From contig CAXXKA010000008.1 of NCBI GenBank assembly GCA_963668625.2, positions 928,001 through 992,000 of the forward strand: DNA of 64,000 bases. Direction: 5' to 3'. Below the pieces are notes generated by a model that was not told where the DNA came from, made no database searches, and saw only the letters and a list, made by a program, of their open reading frames with translations. Position numbers and translations under genes: made by a program. This document shows positions 12,777 through 60,377 of this stretch, piece by piece. The stretch's first letter is position 1. Each line of letters begins with the position of its first letter. Source of the stretch: an uncultured candidate division Zixibacteria bacterium. Lineage in GTDB: Bacteria; Zixibacteria; MSB-5A5; UBA10806; 4484-95.

Positions 12777-14379
12777 ACAGATTAAAGTTAAAGATATCAG
12801 TATCAAAGGCAAACAGCTTGTCGAAATAGATAAACACAGGCTGCCCAAATTACCCTATCCGTACGAGGATTGGGTCGAAGCCGATATCCCGCAGATTTCC
12901 GAGGAGAAGCGCAAGCAGGTGGATGTTTCCCTCGACGGTATTTTGAACCCGGCTATTCCAATTCCTGAAACCGAGGAGCAAAAGCAGAAACTGGTCGCAG
13001 ATTTTCTCGAGGGCTTGAAAAACTTATTGAGCCAGGAAAACAACTGGACATTCTTGAAACCTTTGATGCTTTCGCTGGATAACTGCGTTAAATGCAATAC
13101 CTGCAGTGATGCTTGCCCGATATTCAAAGAGAGCGGCGAGATCGAGGTTTACCGACCGCTTTTCCGCTCGGATGTCCTTCGCCGTATTATCCGTAAATAT
13201 ATCAAACCCGGTGGCAAATTAACCGCGGCATTCTCGGGCAATAATATCGATTTGAACTGGGAGACTATATCCCGATTAGCGCAGCTTTCGTATCGCTGTA
13301 CGCTTTGCCGTAGATGCGCCCAAACCTGCCCGATGGGGGTCGATAACGGCCTGTTGACCCGTGAAATCAGGAAGCTGTTCTCTCAGCAGTTAGGGATTTA
13401 CCCGGCCGAGCTTCATAAAGAAGGCACGATCAAACAGCTCCAGACGGGATCATCCACCGGCATAAATACCGCCGCCTTCCTGGATATTGTCGAGTTCATG
13501 GAGGAGGATATAACCGATAGAACCGGACTGAATATCAAGATACCCGTCGATAAACCGGATGCCGATATTCTGCTGGTACATAACGCCGGCGAGTTTTTAT
13601 CCTGGCCGGAAAATGTCGAGGCGTTCGCTATCATATTCGAGGCCGCCGGTTTAAGTTGGACATTAACCAGCCAGGAGGTCGGATACGACTCGGTCAACTA
13701 CGGCTTATTCTACGATGACGCCCAGCTTGCTAAGGTAACCTTAAAACATGCTGAATCAGCCAAGAAACTCAACGCCAAGAAAGTGGTAGTTGGAGAGTGC
13801 GGCCATGCCCATAAAGCCATGATGGCTATCGGCGATAGAATCTGGCTGGCCGAATCGAATACCCCGCGTGAGTCGAGCCTTGTGCTACTCGATCATATCG
13901 TATCCAAGGGTATGATAAAGCTCGATCCTGAGAAGAATAATTTCCCGGTTACCCTTCACGATCCCTGCAACGTTACTCGTTCGATGGGTATTATCGAACC
14001 CCAGCGTCGCGTTATCCGTAAAATCTGCCCGCAGTTCCGGGAGATGACACCGCATGGTGTGAAAAACTATTGCTGCGGCGGCGGTTCGGGATTTGCGATC
14101 ATGCAGAGTAACAATTTCCCTAGTTGGCGCAACGCTATCGCCGGTAGACGGAAATTCGCCCAGATACTAAACGCATTTACCAAAGAGGAGCTCGAACCGT
14201 CAGTCAACAAATATGTCTGCGCGCCGTGCTCCAACTGCAAAGGTCAGATCAGGGATTTGATCACTCACTATGACGCTTACGAGAAGATCCGCCTTCTGTA
14301 TGGAGGCCTGGTAGAGCTGATAGTAAACGCCATGCCTGAGGTAAACAAGGAATTCATCGAGTGGGATGATTTCCATTAG
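12769..14379 (+). CDS. DsrK/HmcF/HdrD-like Fe-S oxidoreductase with CCG domain
   Basis: Two CxxCxxCxxxC motifs, plus GECGH, LHDPC, YCCGGGSG and PCSNC. Confidence 0.88.
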   Translation: MSKQIKVKDISIKGKQLVEIDKHRLPKLPYPYEDWVEADIPQISEEKRKQVDVSLDGILNPAIPIPETEEQKQKLVADFLEGLKNLLSQENNWTFLKPLMLSLDNCVKCNTCSDACPIFKESGEIEVYRPLFRSDVLRRIIRKYIKPGGKLTAAFSGNNIDLNWETISRLAQLSYRCTLCRRCAQTCPMGVDNGLLTREIRKLFSQQLGIYPAELHKEGTIKQLQTGSSTGINTAAFLDIVEFMEEDITDRTGLNIKIPVDKPDADILLVHNAGEFLSWPENVEAFAIIFEAAGLSWTLTSQEVGYDSVNYGLFYDDAQLAKVTLKHAESAKKLNAKKVVVGECGHAHKAMMAIGDRIWLAESNTPRESSLVLLDHIVSKGMIKLDPEKNNFPVTLHDPCNVTRSMGIIEPQRRVIRKICPQFREMTPHGVKNYCCGGGSGFAIMQSNNFPSWRNAIAGRRKFAQILNAFTKEELEPSVNKYVCAPCSNCKGQIRDLITHYDAYEKIRLLYGGLVELIVNAMPEVNKEFIEWDDFH

Positions 14380-14754: not shown

Positions 14755-14787
14755 AAAAATAAGGCAGGAGCATGCCGCTCCTGCCTT
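14755..14787 (-). terminator. Rho-independent terminator closing the peptidase-peptide operon
   Basis: Perfect stem AAGGCAGGAGC/GCTCCTGCCTT followed on the minus strand by ATTTTT. Confidence 0.8.
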
Positions 14788-14801: not shown

Positions 14802-14960
14802 TTACTCATCGAGCAAATCCCCGGCATCATCCGAGAAAAGACTACACATTCTGGGACGCCCACCGGAACCATCGCACCAGATAGCCGACTGCCCTCCGGC
14901 GCCATCCATAACCGTATATGAATTACCGCCTACGGAATCATGAAAGAGTCTAGCGAACAT
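14802..14960 (-). CDS. 52-aa repeat peptide 3 (putative RiPP-like precursor): MFARLFHDSVGGNSYTVMDGAGGQSAIWCDGSGGRPRMCSLFSDDAGDLLDE
   Basis: GGGAGG RBS before ATG 14960; three 11-aa DxxGG units; shared C-terminal DAGDLLDE. Confidence 0.85.
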   Translation of the reverse strand: MFARLFHDSVGGNSYTVMDGAGGQSAIWCDGSGGRPRMCSLFSDDAGDLLDE

Positions 14961-15083: not shown

Positions 15084-15209
15084 TTACTCATCGAGCATGT
15101 CGCCGATATCCTCGACCGGCGAATTACCATACAACGAATGACCGCCTTTATAATCAGCGACGACCAGTTGAGGAACATTACCGTTATCCGCAACGATCCA
15201 ATTGTACAT
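15084..15209 (-). CDS. 41-aa peptide 2 (absent from the ORF track): MYNWIVADNGNVPQLVVADYKGGHSLYGNSPVEDIGDMLDE
   Basis: AAGGAAGG RBS; two 'VAD' units 11 aa apart; C-terminal DIGDMLDE matches both neighbours. Confidence 0.8.
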   Translation of the reverse strand: MYNWIVADNGNVPQLVVADYKGGHSLYGNSPVEDIGDMLDE

Positions 15210-15259: not shown

Positions 15260-15298
15260 GCTCCCAGGCGGAGGAGTCAATCCCCCACCTGAGAAAGC
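15260..15298 (-). promoter_or_regulatory. Intergenic RNA stem-loop after peptide 1
   Basis: On the minus-strand RNA, CAGGUGGGGGA pairs fully with UCCUCCGCCUG using two G.U pairs; on the plus strand those positions are A-C mismatches. Confidence 0.55.
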
Positions 15299-15305
15299 GC
15301 TACTG

Positions 15306-15629
15306 CTATTCAGCCAGCACATCACCGATATCGGATGACGGTAAGGAACCGGCCTTAGCTCCACCTCCCGAGCCATCGCTCATGATACGAGGTCTGCCAC
15401 CTGAGCCATCGAGATAAATCAGTGGCCTGCCGCCAGCTCCGTCACAACAGACATAAGGCCGGCCGCCTGAGCCATCAAGCTCGATGTAGGGTCGTCCACC
15501 CGCGCCATCAGACATGATGTAGGGTCGTCCGCCTGAGCCATCAGACATGATGTAGGGTTGTCCACCCGCACCATCACTCATGATAAAAGGCTGCCCCCCG
15601 GCACCATCCATCCAAATTCTTCCATACAT
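15306..15629 (-). CDS. 107-aa tandem-repeat peptide 1 (eight DG[AS]GG units; putative multi-core RiPP-like precursor)
   Basis: AAGGAGG RBS before ATG 15629; 33-nt period with synonymous codon variation; C-terminal DIGDVLAE. Confidence 0.9.
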   Translation of the reverse strand: MYGRIWMDGAGGQPFIMSDGAGGQPYIMSDGSGGRPYIMSDGAGGRPYIELDGSGGRPYVCCDGAGGRPLIYLDGSGGRPRIMSDGSGGGAKAGSLPSSDIGDVLAE

Positions 15630-15712
15630 TTTCTTCCTCCTTTTGAAAGAAATTTGAAATATTGCTAATTCGGTGGAAAGTATTGATCCCACCGTTTCGA
15701 GAACTAATTCGA

Positions 15713-18619
15713 TCAAACCATACTGATTTTTTCCATTGGTTTGACATTGATCGATTTGACTTCATCGATCAACTCCGCCGGTCCGAGAATTTTCAGAACA
15801 TCACTTACTGCCAATGATTTCATGACATCCGCGAATTTCGTGAAATCACTCGCTTTAGTATGCAAAATTTGCTCGAATACCGCCGTCCTGTCGGCAGAAT
15901 CGATACCGGCCAGGTAATGCGCCAGCGCTTGATGGCCACGAGCATCGGGAGATTTATAGCTTTGGAACTTTCGCACGGCCCCGATTATACAGGATGTAAG
16001 TTCATCCCGGCTTATTTCAAACGAGGATAGATATTCACCGGCGCTGTTTATCGCCTCGATCGTTTTAGTAAGATTCAAATCGCGGTTGGAAACTATGGTG
16101 AAAACATCACTGGTGTGATCATAGTCGCAATAAGATTCGTACGCGCCGCCGGTTACCCTGATTTTATCCCAGAACCATGTTGTCCAGAGATGGTTGCTGA
16201 CAACGTACGCGGCGCCTTTCGATTCGAAACCTGAGCGACCAATATCAATACCCTTACCAGCAATGCCTGTCTGGGATGGTATAACGAAGCCCTCGGTTTC
16301 CGGCAACGGATCGAACTCATGGGGGTGATAGACTGGTTCGTTTTCAGGCAACTGATAGCTTAATGACAGCAGTTGATCTCTTATATTATCCCAAACCGGA
16401 CGCGAGCATGTAACATTCACTATCATCGTTTTACGGTTGATGAGTATTTGCTTTATCCGATCGAAAATCGCTATGGTTCTTTCGGGAGTTTTCTCGAATT
16501 CATTCAGCAGATTTTTAAGAAAACGTATATAGTCGATTCCGGTCAAACATTCGGACATCCTGCCGGCCTCGTTAAAGTGCGCATTAAGCCGATAACGAAT
16601 AAACTTGAAACCGTGCTCCGAATAAAGCATGGATTCGTGTCGTCTTAACTCATCACTGGTTATATCGTACAACTCCGAAGGGTTATGAATATCCGAATCC
16701 AGGATCAGCTTTTTGAATGAATCTATTAAAGCCCCAGTATTATTGAGAATCGCTTTCCCCGGAAACAGCACCAGTGAGGAGCTAGTCGACTTGTCTTTAT
16801 TCGAGATATTGAAAAATCCGGTACGCACTCCGCCGGTTTCGTTGTTGATCGTTTCATTCAGATTATCCCCGCCAAGCTGAAGCATTGCCCGGGCGATTAA
16901 CCTCGAATACCGCACGAACTCTACCGGCAGGGCGCGCAGATCAAAGCCAAGCGTGATATAAGCGGTACCGCTGGTGTGAATATCATTGAACAGTACACGA
17001 AGGCCGTTGAGGTTTACAATATCCTGATTGATGATATCAGGAGCCATTTCGATATCGGAAACTCGCAGGCGGGGTATCATATTCCGGTCGAAACCGGCTT
17101 TTCTTAACCTAATCGAATCATCCAATCGTGCCGGTGATTTATAGATATCATCCAGTTGCTCCGGGGTTAACGATTCCCGAATACGTTCGAGCTGCGAACG
17201 TTCCAACCCTGATTCCCTGTCGAGCAAGCCGGGATCGGGCCTGAAAACCGCGACCGACCTGTGATTGTTGTTCAGCAGGCATTTTTCGATCAGTCGTTCG
17301 AAATAGTTATCATCGTTTTTAACCAGTTGCTCTATTTCCTGGAGCGGTTGTTCAAAACCAATTTTATCGAATATATCTTTTTCGTAGCACCAGGCTGAAA
17401 GAGCTCTGAGCATTAGTTGAATTCCTGCCGGAGTCTTGCCGAAATTATTCTCTCTGATAAGAAACTGTAATCGGTTAAGCGCCGCTTTTTTCAGCTTTCG
17501 ATCTATGCCTCTCGAGACGATTCGCTCCAAAGCATTGAGAACCGAGGATTCGGCCTTAGCGAGGTCGGCTTGCGCTACACCTTTTAAGCCGGTCGAAAAA
17601 TACGGCTGTCGTAAATCCTGGAATAAACCCACTCCTGCTGTGGTATGGCCGTACACCGATTCTAAAAGTGCGATTCTCAATGGCGAGGAGTTGAGCCCCA
17701 TGAGAATAGTCTCGAACATCATGTTGACTAATGTGGTTTTAAAATCAGGCTTATCGTTTAACACCCAATTTAATGTAACTATATTTTCATCCCGGTTCCC
17801 TTCATTTTGCCGGGATGGAAACGTGTATTCAGCCCTGGCGGGTTTTATGAACGGTTGTTGGCGCTGGACGGATATAGCGTAATCGACGGTATCAAAATCC
17901 TTGAGAAAACTATTTATTCGTTCGAGGTAATTATCCGGTTCGATATCGCCATAAAGAAAAATAAAGCTGTTGGATGGATGATAATGCTTTTTATGATATT
18001 TCAATAAGTCTTCGTAACGTAAATATGGTATTTGCTCGGGAAGCCCCCCTGGTGTATTGGAATAGGGGCTTTGGGGGAATAATGATTTCCTTATATTCTC
18101 AGTGATTCGCGATGAAGCCGAGGAGAAATGGCCTTTCATTTCGCTATATACTATTCCTTTATAAACCAGTTTATCGGGCCGGCCGTTACTTTCCAATCTC
18201 CAACCTTCCAGCGCGAAATTCTCCGGCGAAAGTGTGGGGAAGAAAACCGCATCCAGCATGAGTTCCATGCAGTTGGAATAATCTTTCTTGTTGGGTGTAG
18301 ATGCCAGATAACATGTCGTATCAAGGTAGGTATAGGCATTCAGGTAGTTTTGAAGCGATCCCTTCAGCAACTCGACGAAAACATCTTTGACGGGATATTT
18401 TCTGGAACCGCAGAAAACCATATGCTCCAGAATATGCTGTATACCCGTGGAATTCTCCGGGGGAGTTCGAAGGGCTATTCCAATGGTTTTGTTTACATCA
18501 CTATTTTTAAGCGAAAATACAGTGGCGGATGTTTTCTTGTGCTTAAAAAGCTTGCAGACTGCGTTAAACTCCGGTATCTGCTGTTTTTGAACCAGCTCGA
18601 AATCGGTAATATCTGGCAC
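15713..18619 (-). CDS. M16C insulinase-family metallopeptidase (presequence protease PreP-like), cytoplasmic
   Basis: STGIQHILEHMVFCGSRKYPVKD (HxxEH), LNAYTY, GIVYSEMKG and IRVTGGAY; GTG start after GGAGG; no signal peptide. Confidence 0.93.
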   Translation of the reverse strand: MPDITDFELVQKQQIPEFNAVCKLFKHKKTSATVFSLKNSDVNKTIGIALRTPPENSTGIQHILEHMVFCGSRKYPVKDVFVELLKGSLQNYLNAYTYLDTTCYLASTPNKKDYSNCMELMLDAVFFPTLSPENFALEGWRLESNGRPDKLVYKGIVYSEMKGHFSSASSRITENIRKSLFPQSPYSNTPGGLPEQIPYLRYEDLLKYHKKHYHPSNSFIFLYGDIEPDNYLERINSFLKDFDTVDYAISVQRQQPFIKPARAEYTFPSRQNEGNRDENIVTLNWVLNDKPDFKTTLVNMMFETILMGLNSSPLRIALLESVYGHTTAGVGLFQDLRQPYFSTGLKGVAQADLAKAESSVLNALERIVSRGIDRKLKKAALNRLQFLIRENNFGKTPAGIQLMLRALSAWCYEKDIFDKIGFEQPLQEIEQLVKNDDNYFERLIEKCLLNNNHRSVAVFRPDPGLLDRESGLERSQLERIRESLTPEQLDDIYKSPARLDDSIRLRKAGFDRNMIPRLRVSDIEMAPDIINQDIVNLNGLRVLFNDIHTSGTAYITLGFDLRALPVEFVRYSRLIARAMLQLGGDNLNETINNETGGVRTGFFNISNKDKSTSSSLVLFPGKAILNNTGALIDSFKKLILDSDIHNPSELYDITSDELRRHESMLYSEHGFKFIRYRLNAHFNEAGRMSECLTGIDYIRFLKNLLNEFEKTPERTIAIFDRIKQILINRKTMIVNVTCSRPVWDNIRDQLLSLSYQLPENEPVYHPHEFDPLPETEGFVIPSQTGIAGKGIDIGRSGFESKGAAYVVSNHLWTTWFWDKIRVTGGAYESYCDYDHTSDVFTIVSNRDLNLTKTIEAINSAGEYLSSFEISRDELTSCIIGAVRKFQSYKSPDARGHQALAHYLAGIDSADRTAVFEQILHTKASDFTKFADVMKSLAVSDVLKILGPAELIDEVKSINVKPMEKISMV

Positions 18620-19978: not shown

Positions 19979-20977
19979 ATGAATATATTTGATTGGTTAA
20001 AACAGAATATCGATTTTCAGGAATGCGATTCGACCGCTTTGATGTACGATTACATGGAATCGCAATCGAACGAATTATTGCCTATTATTTATCAGCCTTT
20101 CGATATCGATAACCTCTCACACTGGCGTGACCGGGGATATATACTCGATTTCCATTATTCCGTCGGCGAGGGTAATATCCTGGATTTCGGTCCGGGGGAT
20201 GGCTGGCCTTCGCTGATGATAGCTCCGTTCACCAATCGTATAACCGGTGTTGAGGCCTCGAATACGCGAGTGGAGGTTTGCAGAATAAATGCGGCCCGGC
20301 TCGGTATTCAAAACGTCGAGTTCGTGCATGTTAAACCCGGGGATAAGCTGCCATTCGAGAATAACTTTTTCGATGGCATCACCGCTGCCTCATCCATAGA
20401 GCAAACTCCCGATCCATTCGCGACATTAAGCGAGCTATATAGGGTGTTGAAACCGGGTGGTAAGCTCAGGATGTACTATGAGTCGCTTGCTGGATATCGG
20501 GATGGCCGGGAAAAGGAAATGGTCAGTTGGCAAACGAAAGATAGCAAGTTCAGGATAGATATCTACAACAGGATTATTGACAGGGAAGAAACGGAGATAT
20601 ACTCCCTGGAATTCGATTTACTATCGGATGATATAACAACGCTGTTCAGAGATACAACCGATGCAGAAGATATTCCCGATGATTTGCTTAAAAAGTTGAA
20701 TAATATTACCAGGTCTATTGATAATCCATGCAAAGCCAGGCTGGTACAACCGGATTGCCGGACATGGCTGGAATGGATGGGAAAGATCGGTTTCAGTGGA
20801 TGTTTGCCCACCCGCAACGGCGGTATACTGGCGGAGTTGATGTTCAATACATATAAAGGGGAGAATCGACCGACGAACCTCGATCAACTCGATGAACTTC
20901 TTATACCTTTTATCGCTGAGATAATTAAAATAAAAGAACCTGTATTATCCAACCCTATGATTACCGCAATTAAATAA
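19979..20977 (+). CDS. Class I SAM-dependent methyltransferase
   Basis: ILDFGPGDG, LPFENNFFD and ELYRVLKPGG motifs. Confidence 0.85.
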   Translation: MNIFDWLKQNIDFQECDSTALMYDYMESQSNELLPIIYQPFDIDNLSHWRDRGYILDFHYSVGEGNILDFGPGDGWPSLMIAPFTNRITGVEASNTRVEVCRINAARLGIQNVEFVHVKPGDKLPFENNFFDGITAASSIEQTPDPFATLSELYRVLKPGGKLRMYYESLAGYRDGREKEMVSWQTKDSKFRIDIYNRIIDREETEIYSLEFDLLSDDITTLFRDTTDAEDIPDDLLKKLNNITRSIDNPCKARLVQPDCRTWLEWMGKIGFSGCLPTRNGGILAELMFNTYKGENRPTNLDQLDELLIPFIAEIIKIKEPVLSNPMITAIK

Positions 20978-20979
20978 AC

Positions 20980-22956
20980 CTAACGAAATACCTTATTAAA
21001 AACAGGGTGATCGGGAATGTTTTCACAGGGTGGCCAACCCTCGGGCATCTCGTCCGGTACTTCGTTTCCGTTCGACCATTGCGGCGGAATCATGGGACAA
21101 TAGTCAAGCCCGATAAAGCCTCGGAAATACGACACCAGCCGGCTGACATCCGAACCGAGTACCCGGCAGTCTCCGGTAACATCCCCCGAACCCCAGGCGC
21201 CGTTTATAGAACAGGGTTTGCAAGCTTCTATAACGCTGAGATAATTTACGATATACGTAACATCATTGCCGATTCGTCGTGGCGGCCAGGCGCCGTAATA
21301 CATGTTGGCGTCCCCCAGCAAGAACGGATAGCCCAAAAAGCGAAGCTCGATATCAACTTGCGCGGTATCCCCGGCCAGAGCCTCTATCTCCGAAATGATA
21401 GTGTCGGCGTAGTTTATATGATAGAACGAAAGCTCATAATTGCCGGCATCCAGGCTATCGAAACTGAATTCGCCGTAGAAATCGGAGGTGTCGGTGCGCG
21501 ACGGATTGCTCAGGTCGACTACAATGTTTTCGAGAAATGCCCCGGAGGAGTCGGTCAGAACTCCGGTAATAAACGTAGGATAATGCATGACCATGAACAA
21601 CTGGGTAGTGCTGTCGGAGGCAATATGTATATCGGCTAACGTCGTATCGTTATAGTACTCATCTATGAAACTGATCTCGAAATCACCCAGATCAAGAGAG
21701 TCCATATGGAAATTGCCTTCCTCATCGGTGAAAGCCCGGTGAGAGGTGCCGCCCACGGAAACCCTTATATCCTCCAGTGGCATCATGTTATCATCCACCA
21801 CCGCTCCGGCCAACTTTCCCGGATACCTGAGTATCACATTCTGCATTACCTCGATATCATCAAGCTGAACCTCGACATTCTGAATGATCGTGTCGGCATA
21901 GTAATAGTGACGGTAGCGAATATTATAGCTGCCACTACTGAGGCACCCGATTTGATACTCACTGTTTGCATCCGAGCGTGTACTGAAAGGAGCGTTGGTA
22001 GTATTGATATAAGTAGTGCTAACCGTTTCGCCTAATGGGCCGGTTATAGTTCCGCTTACATAAGGAAGATAATCACAGAGATCGTATATCACCGGCTCTA
22101 CACCGGCGTTGACCTCCAACAGCTCATGATCGTGTACGGTGATCCAGTCCTCCTGCTGCTGCGTGGGAAATCTTGAGGCGATCGCCGTAAATGAATATGA
22201 GGGATCGGTGTAGTAGTACAGGGTTCTATCCAGGCGGTAGGACCATATGGTATTACCATCGCTGAGTATGAAATTTAAAGCCTCATCATAACTGCGAACG
22301 TTTATTTGCCTGAGCGCCTCGATTATACCCTCGACCACGTTCCAGTCATGCTCCTCTATATTTTTCAGGAGAAGAAGGAAATACAGCTCCGAATCGATAA
22401 CGAGATCGGAATCGGCCGGATCGCATTCGGCGATACCTGAGCCGGTTAGCGGATTTTCTATCAAATAATGTTGTCCTACGAGTTCGTATAAAAGTGGTTT
22501 GCTGGCGGTACCGTTATGAATAAAAGTCCAGGTGCGATTGTCCTTTTCTCTTATAAACGGGTGCGGATCCGGAATGCTATCGCTGCCGTGGGCACAGCAA
22601 CCGGCGGAGCAATTTCTGACATGGCCTAAAATGATATTAGGGGCGGTCCTCTCCAGGCCGGCTATGATCACGTCATATTGGATATCGTTAATCGCTCGTA
22701 TCGCTCCCCTGTCGATAATCGCCGTATCCCCGAATGACTGATAACTAGCTATACCCCAGCCATCTATATTAGCGGATTCGGAAAGCCGTTCGAGTGAATA
22801 AGGGTAGTCAACGTAATAATCCTGTATGAGTCCCCGGGGCATATCCGCGGAAATTATTCCCGTTATCCGGCAATTATGAGGTTCCTCATTCTCCTGCCCG
22901 TAAACTATGGGTATAGAAATAAATATCGTAAACAATAACGTGATTATCAGTTTCAT
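20980..22956 (-). CDS. Secreted class II glutamine amidotransferase-like (Ntn) protein with carboxypeptidase-regulatory-like Ig repeats and a C-terminal dockerin-like domain
   Basis: Signal peptide, then CR.., DGWG, GHVR, PHPF, FIHNG, DSE and LNF motifs of GATase-4 type; three Ig-like repeats; GDANM..WPP..DVTY tail. Confidence 0.8.
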   Translation of the reverse strand: MKLIITLLFTIFISIPIVYGQENEEPHNCRITGIISADMPRGLIQDYYVDYPYSLERLSESANIDGWGIASYQSFGDTAIIDRGAIRAINDIQYDVIIAGLERTAPNIILGHVRNCSAGCCAHGSDSIPDPHPFIREKDNRTWTFIHNGTASKPLLYELVGQHYLIENPLTGSGIAECDPADSDLVIDSELYFLLLLKNIEEHDWNVVEGIIEALRQINVRSYDEALNFILSDGNTIWSYRLDRTLYYYTDPSYSFTAIASRFPTQQQEDWITVHDHELLEVNAGVEPVIYDLCDYLPYVSGTITGPLGETVSTTYINTTNAPFSTRSDANSEYQIGCLSSGSYNIRYRHYYYADTIIQNVEVQLDDIEVMQNVILRYPGKLAGAVVDDNMMPLEDIRVSVGGTSHRAFTDEEGNFHMDSLDLGDFEISFIDEYYNDTTLADIHIASDSTTQLFMVMHYPTFITGVLTDSSGAFLENIVVDLSNPSRTDTSDFYGEFSFDSLDAGNYELSFYHINYADTIISEIEALAGDTAQVDIELRFLGYPFLLGDANMYYGAWPPRRIGNDVTYIVNYLSVIEACKPCSINGAWGSGDVTGDCRVLGSDVSRLVSYFRGFIGLDYCPMIPPQWSNGNEVPDEMPEGWPPCENIPDHPVFNKVFR

Positions 22957-33828: not shown

Positions 33829-35123
33829 GATCTTATCAAGGGAATTGTGTAAATTTGTAATGATTTTCAGATTTTCGGTTATCCAGCACATAAGCGACTA
33901 TTCCATAAACGATTCGATCAACACTTTTGGCATTAACAAATTTCCTGAACGGTTTTATCCTCCTTTGCAATTCCTCCAGATATCGCTCCAGAGGATTATT
34001 GGTCTTTATTTGAGTTCTTTCAGGTTCAGCATATTCTCGATAAATCAGTGTTCGATCAAAGCCGCGAATAAATGATCGAACAGCTTTAGGTTCTTTCAAT
34101 CGCCATTTGGCCTTGAAAGCTTTCAATCGTGCCTTCAACTCTTTCTCCGTCTCGGCCTGATAGACCGCAGCAGCATCCCTGGTGATTCGGCTGCGGTTTT
34201 TACGTTCATCCAGATTCTGGCTGATATTCGACAGCTTGTGGAAGACACATTGCTGTGATTTCACCCGCGGATATAACCCGGCCAGAGCTTTAATCAGCCC
34301 CTTACCACCATCGTGAACAACAACCTCCAACAAATGACCGCGCAGACCTCGCTGCTTGAGATCCGACAGAAAGCCCCACCAGTAGGCCTCGCTCTCAGAG
34401 CCAGCCAGCATGAAGTCGATAAGCTCACGGCTGCCATCGTGACGGACACCGTAGGCCACAAGCAACACCTTCTTCACCTTAACCGGAGAGGTTATCTTCA
34501 CCCATAAACCATCCAGATGAATAAAACGATAATCATCGCCCAAAGCCCGACAGTGGAAGCTGCCAACCTCATCGTTTAATGCCTTAACTACGTTCGAGAC
34601 AGCCTGGGCGCTGATGCTTTCACCATAGGCCCGCTTGAACATCCGTGCTGTCTTGCGGGTAGAATGACCAAGCAGAAAGCCCTCTAAAATCAGCCGATCC
34701 AATAGCTGCGAACGCCGTTTGTGCTTCCGCAAGACACTCGACTCAAAGCTGCCATAACGCAGCCGGGGAACCTTTACCTCCTCTAACCAGCCGTATAAAC
34801 TCAGCAAACCCCGACGGTAATAACCATTCCGATAATCCGCCCGCTCCTCACTCCGCTCATACTTTCCGCAGCCAACCGCTATCCTAAACTCAACATTCAA
34901 CATCCGTTCCAAATGACGGCGAGCATGCTTCAACACCACACCCCGAACATCCTCCTCCCAATAACTCTTGACTCCGGCAAATACATAACCTACATTTTCA
35001 TCAGCAAACCTAAGTGGTTTCACGGGTATATCCTCCTTGAAGATTAGCGTTTTCTGCTGGATATACCCGTAATTCTTTAATACATCAATAAATACAAATT
35101 TACACAATTGAATTTACACTAAT
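33829..35123 (-). mobile_element. IS256-family insertion sequence, apparently intact
   Basis: Inverted repeats with shared core AATTGTGTAAATTTGTA; direct repeat CATGGCGT at 33821-33828 and 35124-35131 (extends to ATCATGGCGT, so the ends are uncertain by 1-2 nt). Confidence 0.9.
33836..35023 (-). CDS. IS256 family (Mutator-type) transposase
   Basis: YRNGYY.R, VPRLR, LDG, VHDG, QQCVFH and TNNPLER motifs; probable GTG start at 35023 after GGAGG. Confidence 0.95.
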   Translation of the reverse strand: MKPLRFADENVGYVFAGVKSYWEEDVRGVVLKHARRHLERMLNVEFRIAVGCGKYERSEERADYRNGYYRRGLLSLYGWLEEVKVPRLRYGSFESSVLRKHKRRSQLLDRLILEGFLLGHSTRKTARMFKRAYGESISAQAVSNVVKALNDEVGSFHCRALGDDYRFIHLDGLWVKITSPVKVKKVLLVAYGVRHDGSRELIDFMLAGSESEAYWWGFLSDLKQRGLRGHLLEVVVHDGGKGLIKALAGLYPRVKSQQCVFHKLSNISQNLDERKNRSRITRDAAAVYQAETEKELKARLKAFKAKWRLKEPKAVRSFIRGFDRTLIYREYAEPERTQIKTNNPLERYLEELQRRIKPFRKFVNAKSVDRIVYGIVAYVLDNRKSENHYKFTQFP

Positions 35124-57146: not shown

Positions 57147-60100
57147 ATGTATTTTCGCAATCCGAAATTGATTCCACTGCCGGAGACATCGCAGGATTTT
57201 GAACGATTGTGCATGTATATAGCTCGTAACCACTATGGCCCTGATTTTTATCGCTATGGCCGAAGCGGACAGGAGCAAAGTGGCATTGATGTTTATTCGG
57301 CTTATAACGATGGCGTATATTTGCAATGCAAACTGTATAAAAAATATACACCTAAATTGATTTCGGAATTGAAAGAAGACTTTTCTGCGGCCCTGAAAAA
57401 GTGCCCTGATTTAAGAAAATTTATTTTTGCCGTTAGCATCGATAATGATAAAAATATTCAAGATGTTTGTAAGGAATTGAGTGTCAACAATAAAAGAGTG
57501 ATTCCGTGGTTTTGGGATGAGTTACAAAATGAAATCGCTAATTCTAAATGGCTTTTACGTTATTGCATGAATATTGGATCAGGCGCTCAATGGGTCAATG
57601 ATGATTTCGTCAAAGCTGAAATGGAAAAAGGGATAACTAATCACTGGAGCCCATTACGATTTTATAGCGGAAACGAATATATAGCATGGTATGGTTTACT
57701 ACAAAAATGGGATGCTCCTCGCAAGCATTACGATGGAATTGTATCCGCTATAGATAAGTCATTTGATGATACCTACGGAGATATGCCGGTAGCTGCTGTT
57801 GTTAGAGGTGCTGGAGGAACTGGTAAGTCGGTTTTGTTACGCAGGTTAGCGTTAGATTTGCGAAGGGAATATACTATCTATTGGATTGCAGATAATGCAG
57901 GTGATTTTCTTAAAAATGAATGGGTTTATGATATAGAAATACATAGTGATGAAAAATATTTATTAATATTGGAGGATTGGTATCGCAATTTTACGCGAGC
58001 TACTGATCGACAATCTGTTAATTATCTATTACAAAAGGTAAGGAGATATCCTAATGTTCGATTACTCATCGGTGATAGGCCCGAATCCAACCCTGATTAT
58101 CCGACAATAAATGAAATGATTTTTGATCTAAAAGCCGACGAAAACCATGATTTATTCTCGTATATCACTGAAATCGTTCCCGATTGGAAAGGCAAGTTCA
58201 ACGAGGAAGATCGGGACCTGCTTTATAAATCAGGATTTTTTCAAGCTCTGTTTGTATATCAGTTTTTAGATACGAAAAGAATTCATCGAAAAGCTGAGGA
58301 TTATTTTAGAGAAATTATAGAAAGCGACTATAAGCATCTCATAAATAACAAGGATAATTTCTATCGAGGCCTGGCATGGTCGCTTTACATTGTGTCAAAT
58401 CTGTATATAGATTTCGGAATTCATCTCTCGCCGGAAGCATTAATTGCTATTGCCGAGGATTTTTCAAAGTCCAAGCGTCCTTTTTCGCTCGAAAACGATG
58501 TCCGATTGATAGCAGAGAATACTGTAATTAGAAAGTATATTGAAGTTATTCAGGTCAGCTCCAGGAATGACGCCGGTGAAGAAAATTATTATAGGATTAG
58601 GTTTCTTAACGATACTTTAGCCGATCAAGGATGGCTATCTTTGAATGTCGATGAGTATGATAAATATGAAAGACCATCGACAGTTTTAAGGGTTATTAAG
58701 GCTTTAAAAGCGGAGAAAACGGCATATGATTTAGCAGCTCTTTTAAACTTGATAGTTAAGGCCAAATCAAAGTTATTGAACAAGGATCAAGTCCTCTCTT
58801 GCTGTAATTATTTAATATCAATTAAATGCGACTCTTATCATTATATATATGTATTATTTTCCGAAGATATGATAGATATCAATAACAACGAAAGATATGA
58901 ATATTTACAAAAACTAAAAGGTCTGGGTAAATACAAAACCACATATTGGATTCCTGTCGTTATATGGATGAAGAAGGAATTAAAAGGAAATGACTATAAA
59001 TCAACATTAAAGATGTTGGTCGATGCAGGAACGAATAGTGGTGCTATTTTAAATGCATATTTTAAAATATTAGATGAAAAAGAGTTATTAGCAATATCAG
59101 ATTATTACATTACCCCTGAGAAATTTAACGATAACCTTTATAGTTATTCCCTTCCTACGTTGCTTAAAAGACTAAAAAGCTATGATAAAATTTGTTCTGC
59201 TGCTCTTAACTATTTGAAATCGGAGGAGCCAGAAAAGAATTTCCAGATTTTCACTACCTGCCTCAATATTGTAAAAGCAAACAAGGTTGCTATTGATATT
59301 GCCTTCAATTATCTTAATTCACCGGAGCCAGAGAGAAGAAAAGAGATTTATTCTACTTGTTTGAAAATTTTGGAAGATAAAGAAATAGCGAAAGTTGCAG
59401 CTCGTAAATATATCAAATTACCGAAATCAGAGATATCATACCAGATTTTTAACACCTGTTTGAATATAATAAAAACTGAAGAAGATACGAAAGTTGTTGC
59501 TCGTAAATATATCAAATTACCGAAATCCCAAATTGAAAATGAGATTCTTCCTACTTGTTTGAAAATTTTGAAAGATGAAGAAATAGCGAAAGATGTTGCT
59601 CGTAAATATATCAAATTACCGAAATCGGAAATATCATACCAGATTTTTTCCACCTGTATGAACATAGTAAAAGACGAAGAAGATACGAAAGATGTTGCTC
59701 GTAAATATATCAAATTACCGGAATCAGAGACTACGCTCGCAATTTACACTACTTGTTTAAGTGTATTAAAAGATGAAGAGATAGCGAAAAAAGAAGCGAT
59801 AAAAATATTGAATTCGCCGATTCAAAAAAGTAATGCTAGACTGATATATCATGCGCTGTTTATTACAGCTACAGCGGAAACTGAAGAGCTGGATTCTCTT
59901 GCTGAAGCTAAGGTAAAAGAGATATTTCAGTTAAAAAGGAATTGCTGTGGGGCGGAAGGCAAAATCATTCATAATTTATATTTACAAACCATGAAAGTCC
60001 CATTATTCAGGATAGAAGTCTGGCAATCGGAAGTTGACCGAATATTGCGTAATAAAAATACGATTAACAGGAGATTGTTTGGTTCATTGACTCATAGTCA

Positions 60101-60377
60101 TATTAAAAGGCCTAATCCATTAGCCGGTATGTGTTTGTTATTTTTACGTAACTGGAATGATGAATTTAATAGACCTAGAAAACATTGGGAATATTTTGAG
60201 CGAAGCCTTGCTCATCCAGTGATTGTGGAGAATAGCAAAATTAAAGAAGAGATAAAACATTTATGCAATCGAATGTTGAATGCCTCGAATTGTCCTTCAA
60301 ATTTAAATAACTGCATTAAAAAAGTAGTCGAAAATGATACATTTCCCTTATGGGATCCGGATGGAAAAAGTAATTAA
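57147..60377 (+). CDS. Restriction endonuclease-like domain + P-loop NTPase + helical repeat protein (STAND/Avs-like defence candidate)
   Basis: N-terminal DFERLC..YGRSGQEQSGIDV..LQCK (PD-(D/E)xK/QxK type); Walker A GAGGTGKS; Walker B LLILED; 33-aa repeats; AT-rich. Confidence 0.75.
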   Translation: MYFRNPKLIPLPETSQDFERLCMYIARNHYGPDFYRYGRSGQEQSGIDVYSAYNDGVYLQCKLYKKYTPKLISELKEDFSAALKKCPDLRKFIFAVSIDNDKNIQDVCKELSVNNKRVIPWFWDELQNEIANSKWLLRYCMNIGSGAQWVNDDFVKAEMEKGITNHWSPLRFYSGNEYIAWYGLLQKWDAPRKHYDGIVSAIDKSFDDTYGDMPVAAVVRGAGGTGKSVLLRRLALDLRREYTIYWIADNAGDFLKNEWVYDIEIHSDEKYLLILEDWYRNFTRATDRQSVNYLLQKVRRYPNVRLLIGDRPESNPDYPTINEMIFDLKADENHDLFSYITEIVPDWKGKFNEEDRDLLYKSGFFQALFVYQFLDTKRIHRKAEDYFREIIESDYKHLINNKDNFYRGLAWSLYIVSNLYIDFGIHLSPEALIAIAEDFSKSKRPFSLENDVRLIAENTVIRKYIEVIQVSSRNDAGEENYYRIRFLNDTLADQGWLSLNVDEYDKYERPSTVLRVIKALKAEKTAYDLAALLNLIVKAKSKLLNKDQVLSCCNYLISIKCDSYHYIYVLFSEDMIDINNNERYEYLQKLKGLGKYKTTYWIPVVIWMKKELKGNDYKSTLKMLVDAGTNSGAILNAYFKILDEKELLAISDYYITPEKFNDNLYSYSLPTLLKRLKSYDKICSAALNYLKSEEPEKNFQIFTTCLNIVKANKVAIDIAFNYLNSPEPERRKEIYSTCLKILEDKEIAKVAARKYIKLPKSEISYQIFNTCLNIIKTEEDTKVVARKYIKLPKSQIENEILPTCLKILKDEEIAKDVARKYIKLPKSEISYQIFSTCMNIVKDEEDTKDVARKYIKLPESETTLAIYTTCLSVLKDEEIAKKEAIKILNSPIQKSNARLIYHALFITATAETEELDSLAEAKVKEIFQLKRNCCGAEGKIIHNLYLQTMKVPLFRIEVWQSEVDRILRNKNTINRRLFGSLTHSHIKRPNPLAGMCLLFLRNWNDEFNRPRKHWEYFERSLAHPVIVENSKIKEEIKHLCNRMLNASNCPSNLNNCIKKVVENDTFPLWDPDGKSN
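59200..59790 (+). repeat. 99-bp (33-aa) coding tandem repeats, about six copies
   Basis: GCTCGTAAATATATCAAATTACCG begins at 59400, 59499, 59598 and 59697; six 'TC[LM]' units. Confidence 0.9.

Follow-up and report, generated by a model that had tools for sequence, protein, structure and literature searches.

A rare family of small acidic peptides encoded directly downstream of a PreP-type M16C peptidase in an uncultured Zixibacteria bacterium

The 64-kb window analysed here, the whole 64,000-nucleotide stretch of contig CAXXKA010000008.1 from an uncultured Zixibacteria bacterium, carries on its minus strand an operon that begins with a gene for a predicted PreP-type M16C zinc peptidase and continues with three paralogous genes for short peptides, which we call pep1, pep2 and pep3 (Table 1). 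The three peptide genes all lie downstream of the peptidase gene on the same strand, and each is preceded by a strong Shine-Dalgarno sequence (SD); that of pep3, GGAGG, is placed 5 nt upstream of its ATG. No signal peptide is visible in the sequence of any of the four products. The pep1 open reading frame (ORF) had been flagged in an earlier note, made from the DNA letters alone, as a row of tandem 11-residue cassettes in which a constant frame surrounds a variable four-residue slot, and it was interpreted there as a combinatorial library of peptide cores or, alternatively, as a small repeat fold.

Table 1. Coordinates of the peptidase-peptide operon and its elements (window positions; aa, amino acids)
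Feature	Position	Strand	Description
M16C peptidase (P0004/P0101)	15713..18619	minus	968 aa; predicted PreP-type zinc peptidase; first gene of the operon
Shine-Dalgarno GGAGG of pep1	15636..15640	minus	6 nt before the ATG; read from the sequence
pep1 (P0001)	15306..15629	minus	107 aa; eight 11-residue units between the head MYGRIWMD and the tail DIGDVLAE; the flagged ORF
Repeat array of pep1	15345..15608	minus	residues 8-95; seven units DG[AS]GG[QR]P plus four residues, and one degenerate unit
G+C-rich hairpin	15262..15294	minus	14 bp, no T-run; directly 3' of the pep1 stop codon
pep2 (P0002)	15084..15209	minus	41 aa; two degenerate units between the head MYNWIVAD and the tail DIGDMLDE; own SD GGAAGG
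pep3 (P0099)	14802..14960	minus	52 aa when started at ATG 14960; three units between the head MFARLFHD and the tail DAGDLLDE
Tail-plus-stop motif D-x-G-D-h-L-[DA]-E-stop	15306..15332, 15084-15110, 14802-14828	minus	degenerate DNA pattern
Intrinsic-terminator-like hairpin	14761..14787	minus	12 pairs, 7 of them G-C, followed by a T-run; closes the operon after pep3

The translation of pep1 opens with MYGRIWM, continues with seven exact DG[AS]GG[QR]P units that each carry four further residues, passes through a degenerate eighth unit (DGSGGGAKAGS) and ends in an acidic tail, LPSSDIGDVLAE; the cassette string given in the earlier note is the exact translation of this reading frame. Units start at residues 8, 19, 30 and so on to 85. 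At the DNA level, two periods are picked up by Tandem Repeats Finder, one of 33 nt (3.1 copies, 85% matches, score 155) and a weaker one of 66 nt (2.3 copies, 76%), the latter fitting an alternation of Ala and Ser across units 2-7. Pairwise identity among the eight 33-nt units ranges from 39 to 85%, and to judge by their sequences the units are old. When codons are compared over the 28 unit pairs, the seven frame codons of each unit (n=196) give 101 synonymous and 40 non-synonymous differences with 55 identical codons, and the four slot codons (n=112) give 18 synonymous and 74 non-synonymous differences with 20 identical codons. Slot position 2 is constrained, being I or V in all seven regular units. 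The earlier note had remarked that synonymous positions of the DNA vary under a constant protein frame, and had taken this as a sign of selection on the protein; the codon-difference pattern across the 28 unit pairs bears out both the remark and the inference. The repeat pattern is real and non-random.

We place the start of pep1 at the ATG at position 15629; the alternative TTG at 15716 in the ORF list would overlap the peptidase gene. With either start, pep1 is absent as a called protein from a collection of 15 billion proteins, in which pep2 and pep3 are both present. A 251-nt contig from a wetland metagenome of another study matches positions 15497-15747 with two differences (at window positions 15544 and 15570), one of them synonymous (Gly20) and the other turning slot residue Ser29 into Tyr; the depth of this contig is low (2.7), so the change may be an error.

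The ends of the three peptides are shared at the level of residues and not of codons. The tails of pep1, pep2 and pep3 have the same residues and different codons, and a degenerate pattern of DNA letters covering tail and stop codon has exactly three matches in the window, against none expected from shuffled sequence. The hairpin that follows pep1 is exceptionally stable: its 96-nt spacer folds at -36.3 kcal/mol (z -4.4), and none of 200 shuffles was equally stable. A further 8-bp hairpin lies between the peptidase stop codon and the pep1 SD. The hairpins beside pep1 may act in RNA stability or processing and thereby set the ratio of enzyme to peptide; Rfam gave no match between positions 14300 and 19400.

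Together with relatives found elsewhere, the three peptides delineate a family with two conserved ends. The head has eight residues, M-[YFL]-x-[RW]-h-x-x-D, and the acidic C-terminal tail also has eight, D-x-G-D-h-L-[DA]-E, in which the [DA] position is optional. Between them lie from zero to eight units of eleven residues, D-G-x-G-G-x-P and four more, whose register is fixed: units start at residues 8, 19, 30 and so on in the members that have them. The ends and the unit register are the best conserved parts, the slots vary from hydrophobic to hydrophilic, and all members are acidic (isoelectric point, pI, 4.05-4.53). By these features, pep1 appears to be the expanded representative of an uncatalogued and very small peptide family whose members are acidic and carry no signal peptide.

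The relatives came from an exhaustive HMMER search of 1.84 billion representative proteins, which returned 96 matches at E<=0.001, of which we examined 46; the results of this search given here refer to those 46. Besides the window's own pep3, the small matches comprise P0037 and P0086, both of 52 aa with three units, with the heads MYGRIAAD or MYKRICAD and the tails DLGDILDE or DVGDILDE. P0037 derives from a 1032-bp Logan contig. A third protein, P0090 (73 aa), can be aligned to pep3 starting at its own Met9 (E 3e-8); it has four DGAGGQP units, whose slots are hydrophilic (PEKL, PQTL), and no tail, perhaps because its 2164-bp contig (JGI) ends there. The head/tail family thus appears to be extremely rare, with two or three other members among the 1.84 billion representatives. 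The earlier note had named the occurrence of homologues as repeats inside large structural proteins as an observation that would speak against its proposal, and what the large matches proved to be is an unrelated mix of low-complexity repeats. They include ankyrin and WD40 repeats beside assorted 11-mer or low-complexity ones, all lacking head and tail, and we judged them non-homologous. Among the weak matches, P0094, P0097 and P0005 are bacterial proteins built of D-x-x-G-x-P-R plus short-strand repeats of about 11-12 residues, and two of the three have a membrane segment at the N-terminus. These proteins look like a genuine class of beta-hairpin repeat that is uncatalogued and resembles the pep1 unit in pattern only.

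Other searches returned little. A word-indexed protein search with pep1 yielded none of 4,176 candidates at E<=0.01, and a four-row family profile run against 5.8 billion clusters recovered only its own four query rows. A degenerate DNA pattern for head plus tail matched five times in 185,579 species genomes, three times in the JGI metagenome contigs and not at all in IMG/VR; all eight matches are chance, and as M16C was found in none of the five genomes concerned, they have no value as a control. Across 285 genomes of the phylum, the family profile gave, beyond the window's own genome, only a weak match (E 0.002) in a 755-aa frame and no further member. A tail-variant pattern gave ten matches in nine of these 285 genomes against four control matches, and a single one, in a genome we label G238, is a family member; among the other nine, five end in TGG where a stop is required, one contains a stop and the three that were examined are unrelated. 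No peptide of the family has a match in Pfam, NCBIfam, PADLOC or PHROGs (at E<=1, pep1 hits a single Pfam entry, a zinc ribbon unrelated to it, with E 0.31), sequence searches of the PDB with the peptides gave nothing meaningful and the ESM Atlas gave neither a usable match nor a model. To judge by these comparisons, the peptides belong to no catalogued family. A single-sequence AlphaFold2 model of pep1 has a mean predicted local distance difference test score (pLDDT) of 38.7, with no residue above 50, and a predicted template-modelling score of 0.21.

The peptidase carries the Peptidase_M16, Peptidase_M16_C, M16C_assoc and PreP_C domains (45.9, 72.5, 113.2 and 112.5 bits, all above their cut-offs) and aligns end to end with Arabidopsis PreP1 (PDB: 2fge; E 9e-186). 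The catalytic motifs are intact, with HILEH at residues 62-66 and the distal glutamate in SEMKG, aligned with NEMKG of 2fge, and the R/Y region IRVTGGAY aligns with VRVSGGAY. With all the defining features present, the enzyme is by sequence a member of the PreP/M16C family. Its closest M16C relative found, P0102, is 53% identical and the next best 39%. P0102 is a singleton from ENA that lies on a single 9204-bp contig, and the family peptide P0086 likewise comes from ENA and a 9204-bp contig; we infer that the two are neighbours on one contig. In trees built with 53 other M16Cs, the window enzyme, P0102 and the M16C of G238 fall on one side of a branch that has a support of 100 in both FastTree and IQ-TREE, with the caveats of long branches and unusual composition. 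The window enzyme (P0101) and P0102 jointly depart at 114 sites from a residue that is at least 90% conserved in the 53 others. PreP-type proteins are common in bacteria, being reported in 854 of 6,820 bacterial proteomes, with no function given in the part of that source available to us (PMC9291397), and the M16 review, in its available part, names only organellar PreP and falcilysin as M16C examples (PMC12731061).

The M16C_assoc domain is present in two of the 285 phylum genomes, the window's own (G000) and G238, and in both a head/tail peptide gene lies directly downstream of the M16C gene. The G238 gene is cut by a contig end and its product is 36% identical to the window M16C. Next to it downstream, in the same orientation, lies a 28-aa ORF, MLGRMIIDYPPYCLIPVDDNNDDGDVLE (MLGRMIID...DDGDVLE; L053 6053-6139), which has AGGAGG 6 nt upstream and a strong terminator after it, and which carries the family head and tail with no DGxGG unit between them. 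Like pep1, this peptide is absent as a called protein from the 15-billion-protein collection; annotation misses genes such as these two. Head, tail and a site directly downstream of an M16C of the same clade therefore coincide, the site being seen directly in the window and in G238 and by inference on the ENA contig. In a control phylum, M16C occurs in 32 of 251 genomes; 30 loci were examined, of which 23 have at least 200 nt downstream, and a same-strand small ORF with an acidic tail was found downstream of M16C in none of these 23. The pairing is therefore clade-specific and not general to bacterial M16C genes. The sequence features, the operon layout, the co-occurrence of peptide and peptidase and the separate M16C clade are direct observations, and on the evidence of gene order and sequence the peptide family is the dedicated genetic partner of one PreP-type M16C clade. 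This rare pairing, recurring in other uncultured bacteria, probably marks an undescribed peptide-peptidase system.

Among 41 genomes compared, M16C is found in the window's own and is absent from the 40 relatives, in which the peptides were not found either, and in two genomes of the same genus the syntenic flanks are occupied by other genes. On these grounds the cassette (about 14.4-19.3 kb) is an island. A search for relatives of the M16C locus in genome contigs, and for P0102 in viral contigs, found no related locus. About 15 kb from the cassette, a Mutator-family transposase gene (33836-35107, minus strand, E 6.9e-74) is a sign of mobile DNA.

The surroundings of the operon contain several genes of separate interest. 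In 38 scanned ORFs of the window we recognised no tailoring enzyme for peptides that are made on ribosomes and modified after translation (RiPPs), no exporter and no type I secretion component. A 332-aa class I S-adenosylmethionine (SAM) methyltransferase is encoded at 19979-20977 (plus strand), after a HAD hydrolase gene; it has a partial match to the methyltransferase domain of PADLOC 'mad2' (E 6.6e-16) and is missing between the HAD and GATase-like genes of the same-genus genome G001. We considered it as a part of the system and rejected it, as orthologues with 40-42% identity occur in two class-level relatives (G037 and G039) that lack the cassette. The gene at 20980-22956 (minus strand) encodes a 658-aa product with a class II glutamine-amidotransferase-like domain and three CarboxypepD_reg domains, and this product and those of two genes at L036 (4618-6315 and 7550-9520) are secreted-looking proteins with a common dockerin-like end (GDVNGDC.V.G.DV.RLV.YF.G). 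A 1076-aa protein encoded at 57147-60377 (plus strand) has a 'novel STAND NTPase 5' domain (E 1.9e-11) and may be an NTPase of the conflict or defence type.

The nearest known counterparts of the enzyme are PreP and falcilysin, with which it shares the four Pfam domains, the end-to-end alignment, the HxxEH motif, the distal glutamate and the R/Y region; the partners here are also short, probably unfolded peptides of the kind that such chambers accept. Those enzymes, as described in the available part of the review, are organellar or parasite proteins that clear many unrelated peptides (PMC12731061), whereas here a divergent bacterial clade has a peptide family of its own. The arrangement of a small peptide gene next to one for an M16 zinc peptidase, the presumed processing enzyme of the peptide, with several precursor paralogues, recalls PqqA with PqqF/G, subtilosin SboA with AlbE/AlbF and class III lanthipeptides with PttP1/PttP2. 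The PqqF/G and AlbE/AlbF peptidases are of the M16B type. PttP1/P2 are likewise M16B-type, and heteromeric, according to the accessible text of PMC10885120. These M16B pairs work alongside a modifying enzyme, whereas the window encodes a single-chain M16C with no modifying enzyme recognised nearby, and the peptides differ from those precursors in having two conserved ends and internal repeats. The PqqF model scores 14.8 bits against the window M16C, for a cut-off of 320. A RiPP precursor with an M16B leader peptidase was accordingly set aside as a type for this locus: the enzyme is an M16C, and neither a radical SAM enzyme nor LanKC was recognised among the scanned ORFs. By analogy, the finding resembles the theme of a peptide with an M16 peptidase, and what appears new is the M16C in place of M16B, the lack of any recognised modifying enzyme nearby and the architecture of head, tail and repeats.

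The array of units has parallels of another kind. Cyanobactin precursors of the PatE type, the fungal Kex2-processed precursors (ustiloxin type) and yeast alpha-factor also have tandem units in which a constant flank surrounds a variable short core. The fungal and yeast multi-core precursors belong to secretory-pathway systems. pep1 differs in having no leader, in its unrelated flanks and in the lack of a PatA/PatG protease in G000. The cyanobactin type was rejected on the lack of PatA/PatG in both G000 and G238 and on the head of only 7-8 residues before the first unit, though the constant frame does flank each slot. The RTX nonapeptide beta-roll, with the consensus GGxGxDxUx, is similar in its short Gly/Asp-rich tandem repeats, its one buried hydrophobic position and its acidic C-terminal segment; pep1 differs in a period of 11 rather than 9 and a reversed order of Asp and hydrophobic residue. 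With the period of 11, no HemolysinCabind match and no ATP-binding cassette or membrane-fusion protein (ABC/MFP) or type I secretion genes recognised among the scanned ORFs, an RTX/haemolysin-type protein was also rejected. The same holds for a tag with C-terminal glutamate of the Pup/UBact kind: the PafA/Dop ligase (PF03136) is found in neither G000 nor G238, and the Corynebacterium glutamicum control was positive.

Conserved ends, a hypervariable payload of variable length and tandem paralogues beside a chamber peptidase are what would be expected of dedicated substrates, or at least ligands. With moderate confidence, we take the peptides to be partners dedicated to a specialised bacterial peptidasome, and most likely its substrates, pep1 being a version expanded to many units. 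Peptidase and peptides would be made together in the cytoplasm, where the head and tail would act as handles recognised by the clam-shell enzyme and the glycine-rich, probably unfolded middle would be the payload that the peptidase cuts. The payload of pep1 would have been multiplied through tandem duplication, with selection keeping the DGxGGxP frame and letting the four-residue slot diversify, such that one gene would supply a set of related short peptides. Binding and cleavage of the peptides, and activity residing in the fragments and not in the intact peptide, are what we infer from this arrangement. A more specific and distinctly tentative version, which we think unlikely as it stands, is a two-part peptide factory: the M16C would load its co-encoded peptides by head and tail, the array would be cut at each constant DGxGGxP frame with no other tailoring enzyme, and the result would be a library of 11-residue peptides differing only in the four-residue slot, with the number of units (0-8) setting the number of products per gene.

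Several points weigh against the peptides being dedicated substrates of a separate peptidase clade. The head/tail family has only six or seven known members, and the peptide-linked clade rests on three loci, the ENA one by inference. Of the signature sites of the window clade, the G238 M16C covers 82 and shares only 15. The scanned ORFs yielded no recognisable exporter, immunity gene or tailoring enzyme, and a secreted product is not indicated. Organellar PreP enzymes handle peptides of up to about 65 residues, and pep1 has 107. Organellar PreP is, moreover, described in the accessible text of the M16 review as a degrader of free peptides and not as a maturase (PMC12731061).

The peptides might instead work intact as repeat mini-proteins, in which each slot would form a short beta-strand and DGxGG a tight turn, possibly with calcium or another metal bound through Asp, giving a beta-hairpin meander, a beta-roll or an amyloid-like stack whose turnover is all that the peptidase controls. 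The I or V at slot position 2 of every regular unit and the acidity of all members would suit such a fold, the Ala/Ser alternation and the 66-nt super-period are as expected of a two-strand unit, and strand repeats of the D-x-x-G-x-P-R kind do exist in P0094, P0097 and P0005, weak HMMER matches as these are. What counts against it is that the strongest conservation is at the two ends and not in the repeats, that the slots of P0090 are hydrophilic, that Pfam, NCBIfam and the PDB offer no match and that family members of 41-52 aa have only two or three degenerate units and the 28-aa member of G238 none. A conserved function cannot then rest on a repeat fold, which weakens the solenoid and amyloid readings, including the small beta-solenoid that the earlier note had offered as its alternative, and we regard intact mini-proteins as an unlikely explanation. 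Somewhat less probable again is that the peptides are regulators or inhibitors that plug their own peptidase, with head and tail docking on the two halves of the clam shell and holding the enzyme closed or occupied; this would shield the cytoplasm against a protease gained by horizontal transfer, in the manner of protease-inhibitor operons. The order of a protease gene followed by small partners in one operon, the two conserved ends joined by a spacer of free length and the acquisition of the cassette as an island all agree with this. An inhibitor would need neither three paralogues of very different length nor an expansion to eight units with the frame under selection, and we know of no M16 inhibitor of such a kind.

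The proposal of the earlier note, a classical RiPP, would make pep1 a multi-core precursor whose excised units are cyclised or modified by enzymes encoded elsewhere, yielding cyanobactin-like macrocycles or aspartimide/isoAsp at Asp-Gly. The constant frame with its variable slot and the tandem paralogous precursor genes are in keeping with it, and M16 enzymes do act as leader peptidases in some pathways (PttP1/PttP2; available part of PMC10885120). Its chemistry finds no counterpart in what we searched: TIGR03895 (PatA/PatG family) passes its cut-off in neither G000 nor G238, the best score being 65 bits against 421, at the level of generic subtilisins; the 38 scanned ORFs include no recognised YcaO, radical SAM, LanM/KC, ATP-grasp, PCMT or exporter; the adjacent methyltransferase has its orthologues in cassette-less genomes; and an eight-residue head takes the place of a leader peptide. 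The idea of a core library accordingly survives in part, gaining indirect support from the tandem paralogues, the conserved ends, the hypervariable middle and the association with one M16C clade, while the chemistry proposed for it loses ground with no PatA/PatG-type protease, tailoring enzyme or exporter recognised, and we consider a classical RiPP improbable. Least credible of all is that the ORF, lying over a DNA tandem repeat, is accidental or in decay and has no peptide function. The lack of pep1 among called proteins would agree with it, and that no RNA sequencing run was found to contain the locus counts neither way, but it is contradicted by the substitution pattern, in which the frame is kept with a synonymous excess across units as little as 39% and at most 85% identical in DNA, and also has to contend with the strong SD and with a head and tail common to paralogues and homologues.

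In the available parts of PMC12731061 and PMC9291397, no bacterial M16C with a known substrate is named. Our literature search, with supplements outside its scope, returned nothing on a bacterial M16C with peptides of its own, nor on an M16C together with a precursor peptide and a biosynthetic gene cluster, and the peptide motif strings occurred only in unrelated eukaryotic work. Against this background, the locus presents a natural, genetically paired candidate substrate or ligand for one M16C clade, and the system is experimentally tractable, with peptides short enough for synthesis and conserved ends open to mutation. Should the repeats be cut into units, they would represent a minimal route by which one gene and a single protease give a set of related short peptides, and production of such peptides by the co-encoded enzyme would, if true, be the first physiological role for a bacterial PreP-type M16C.

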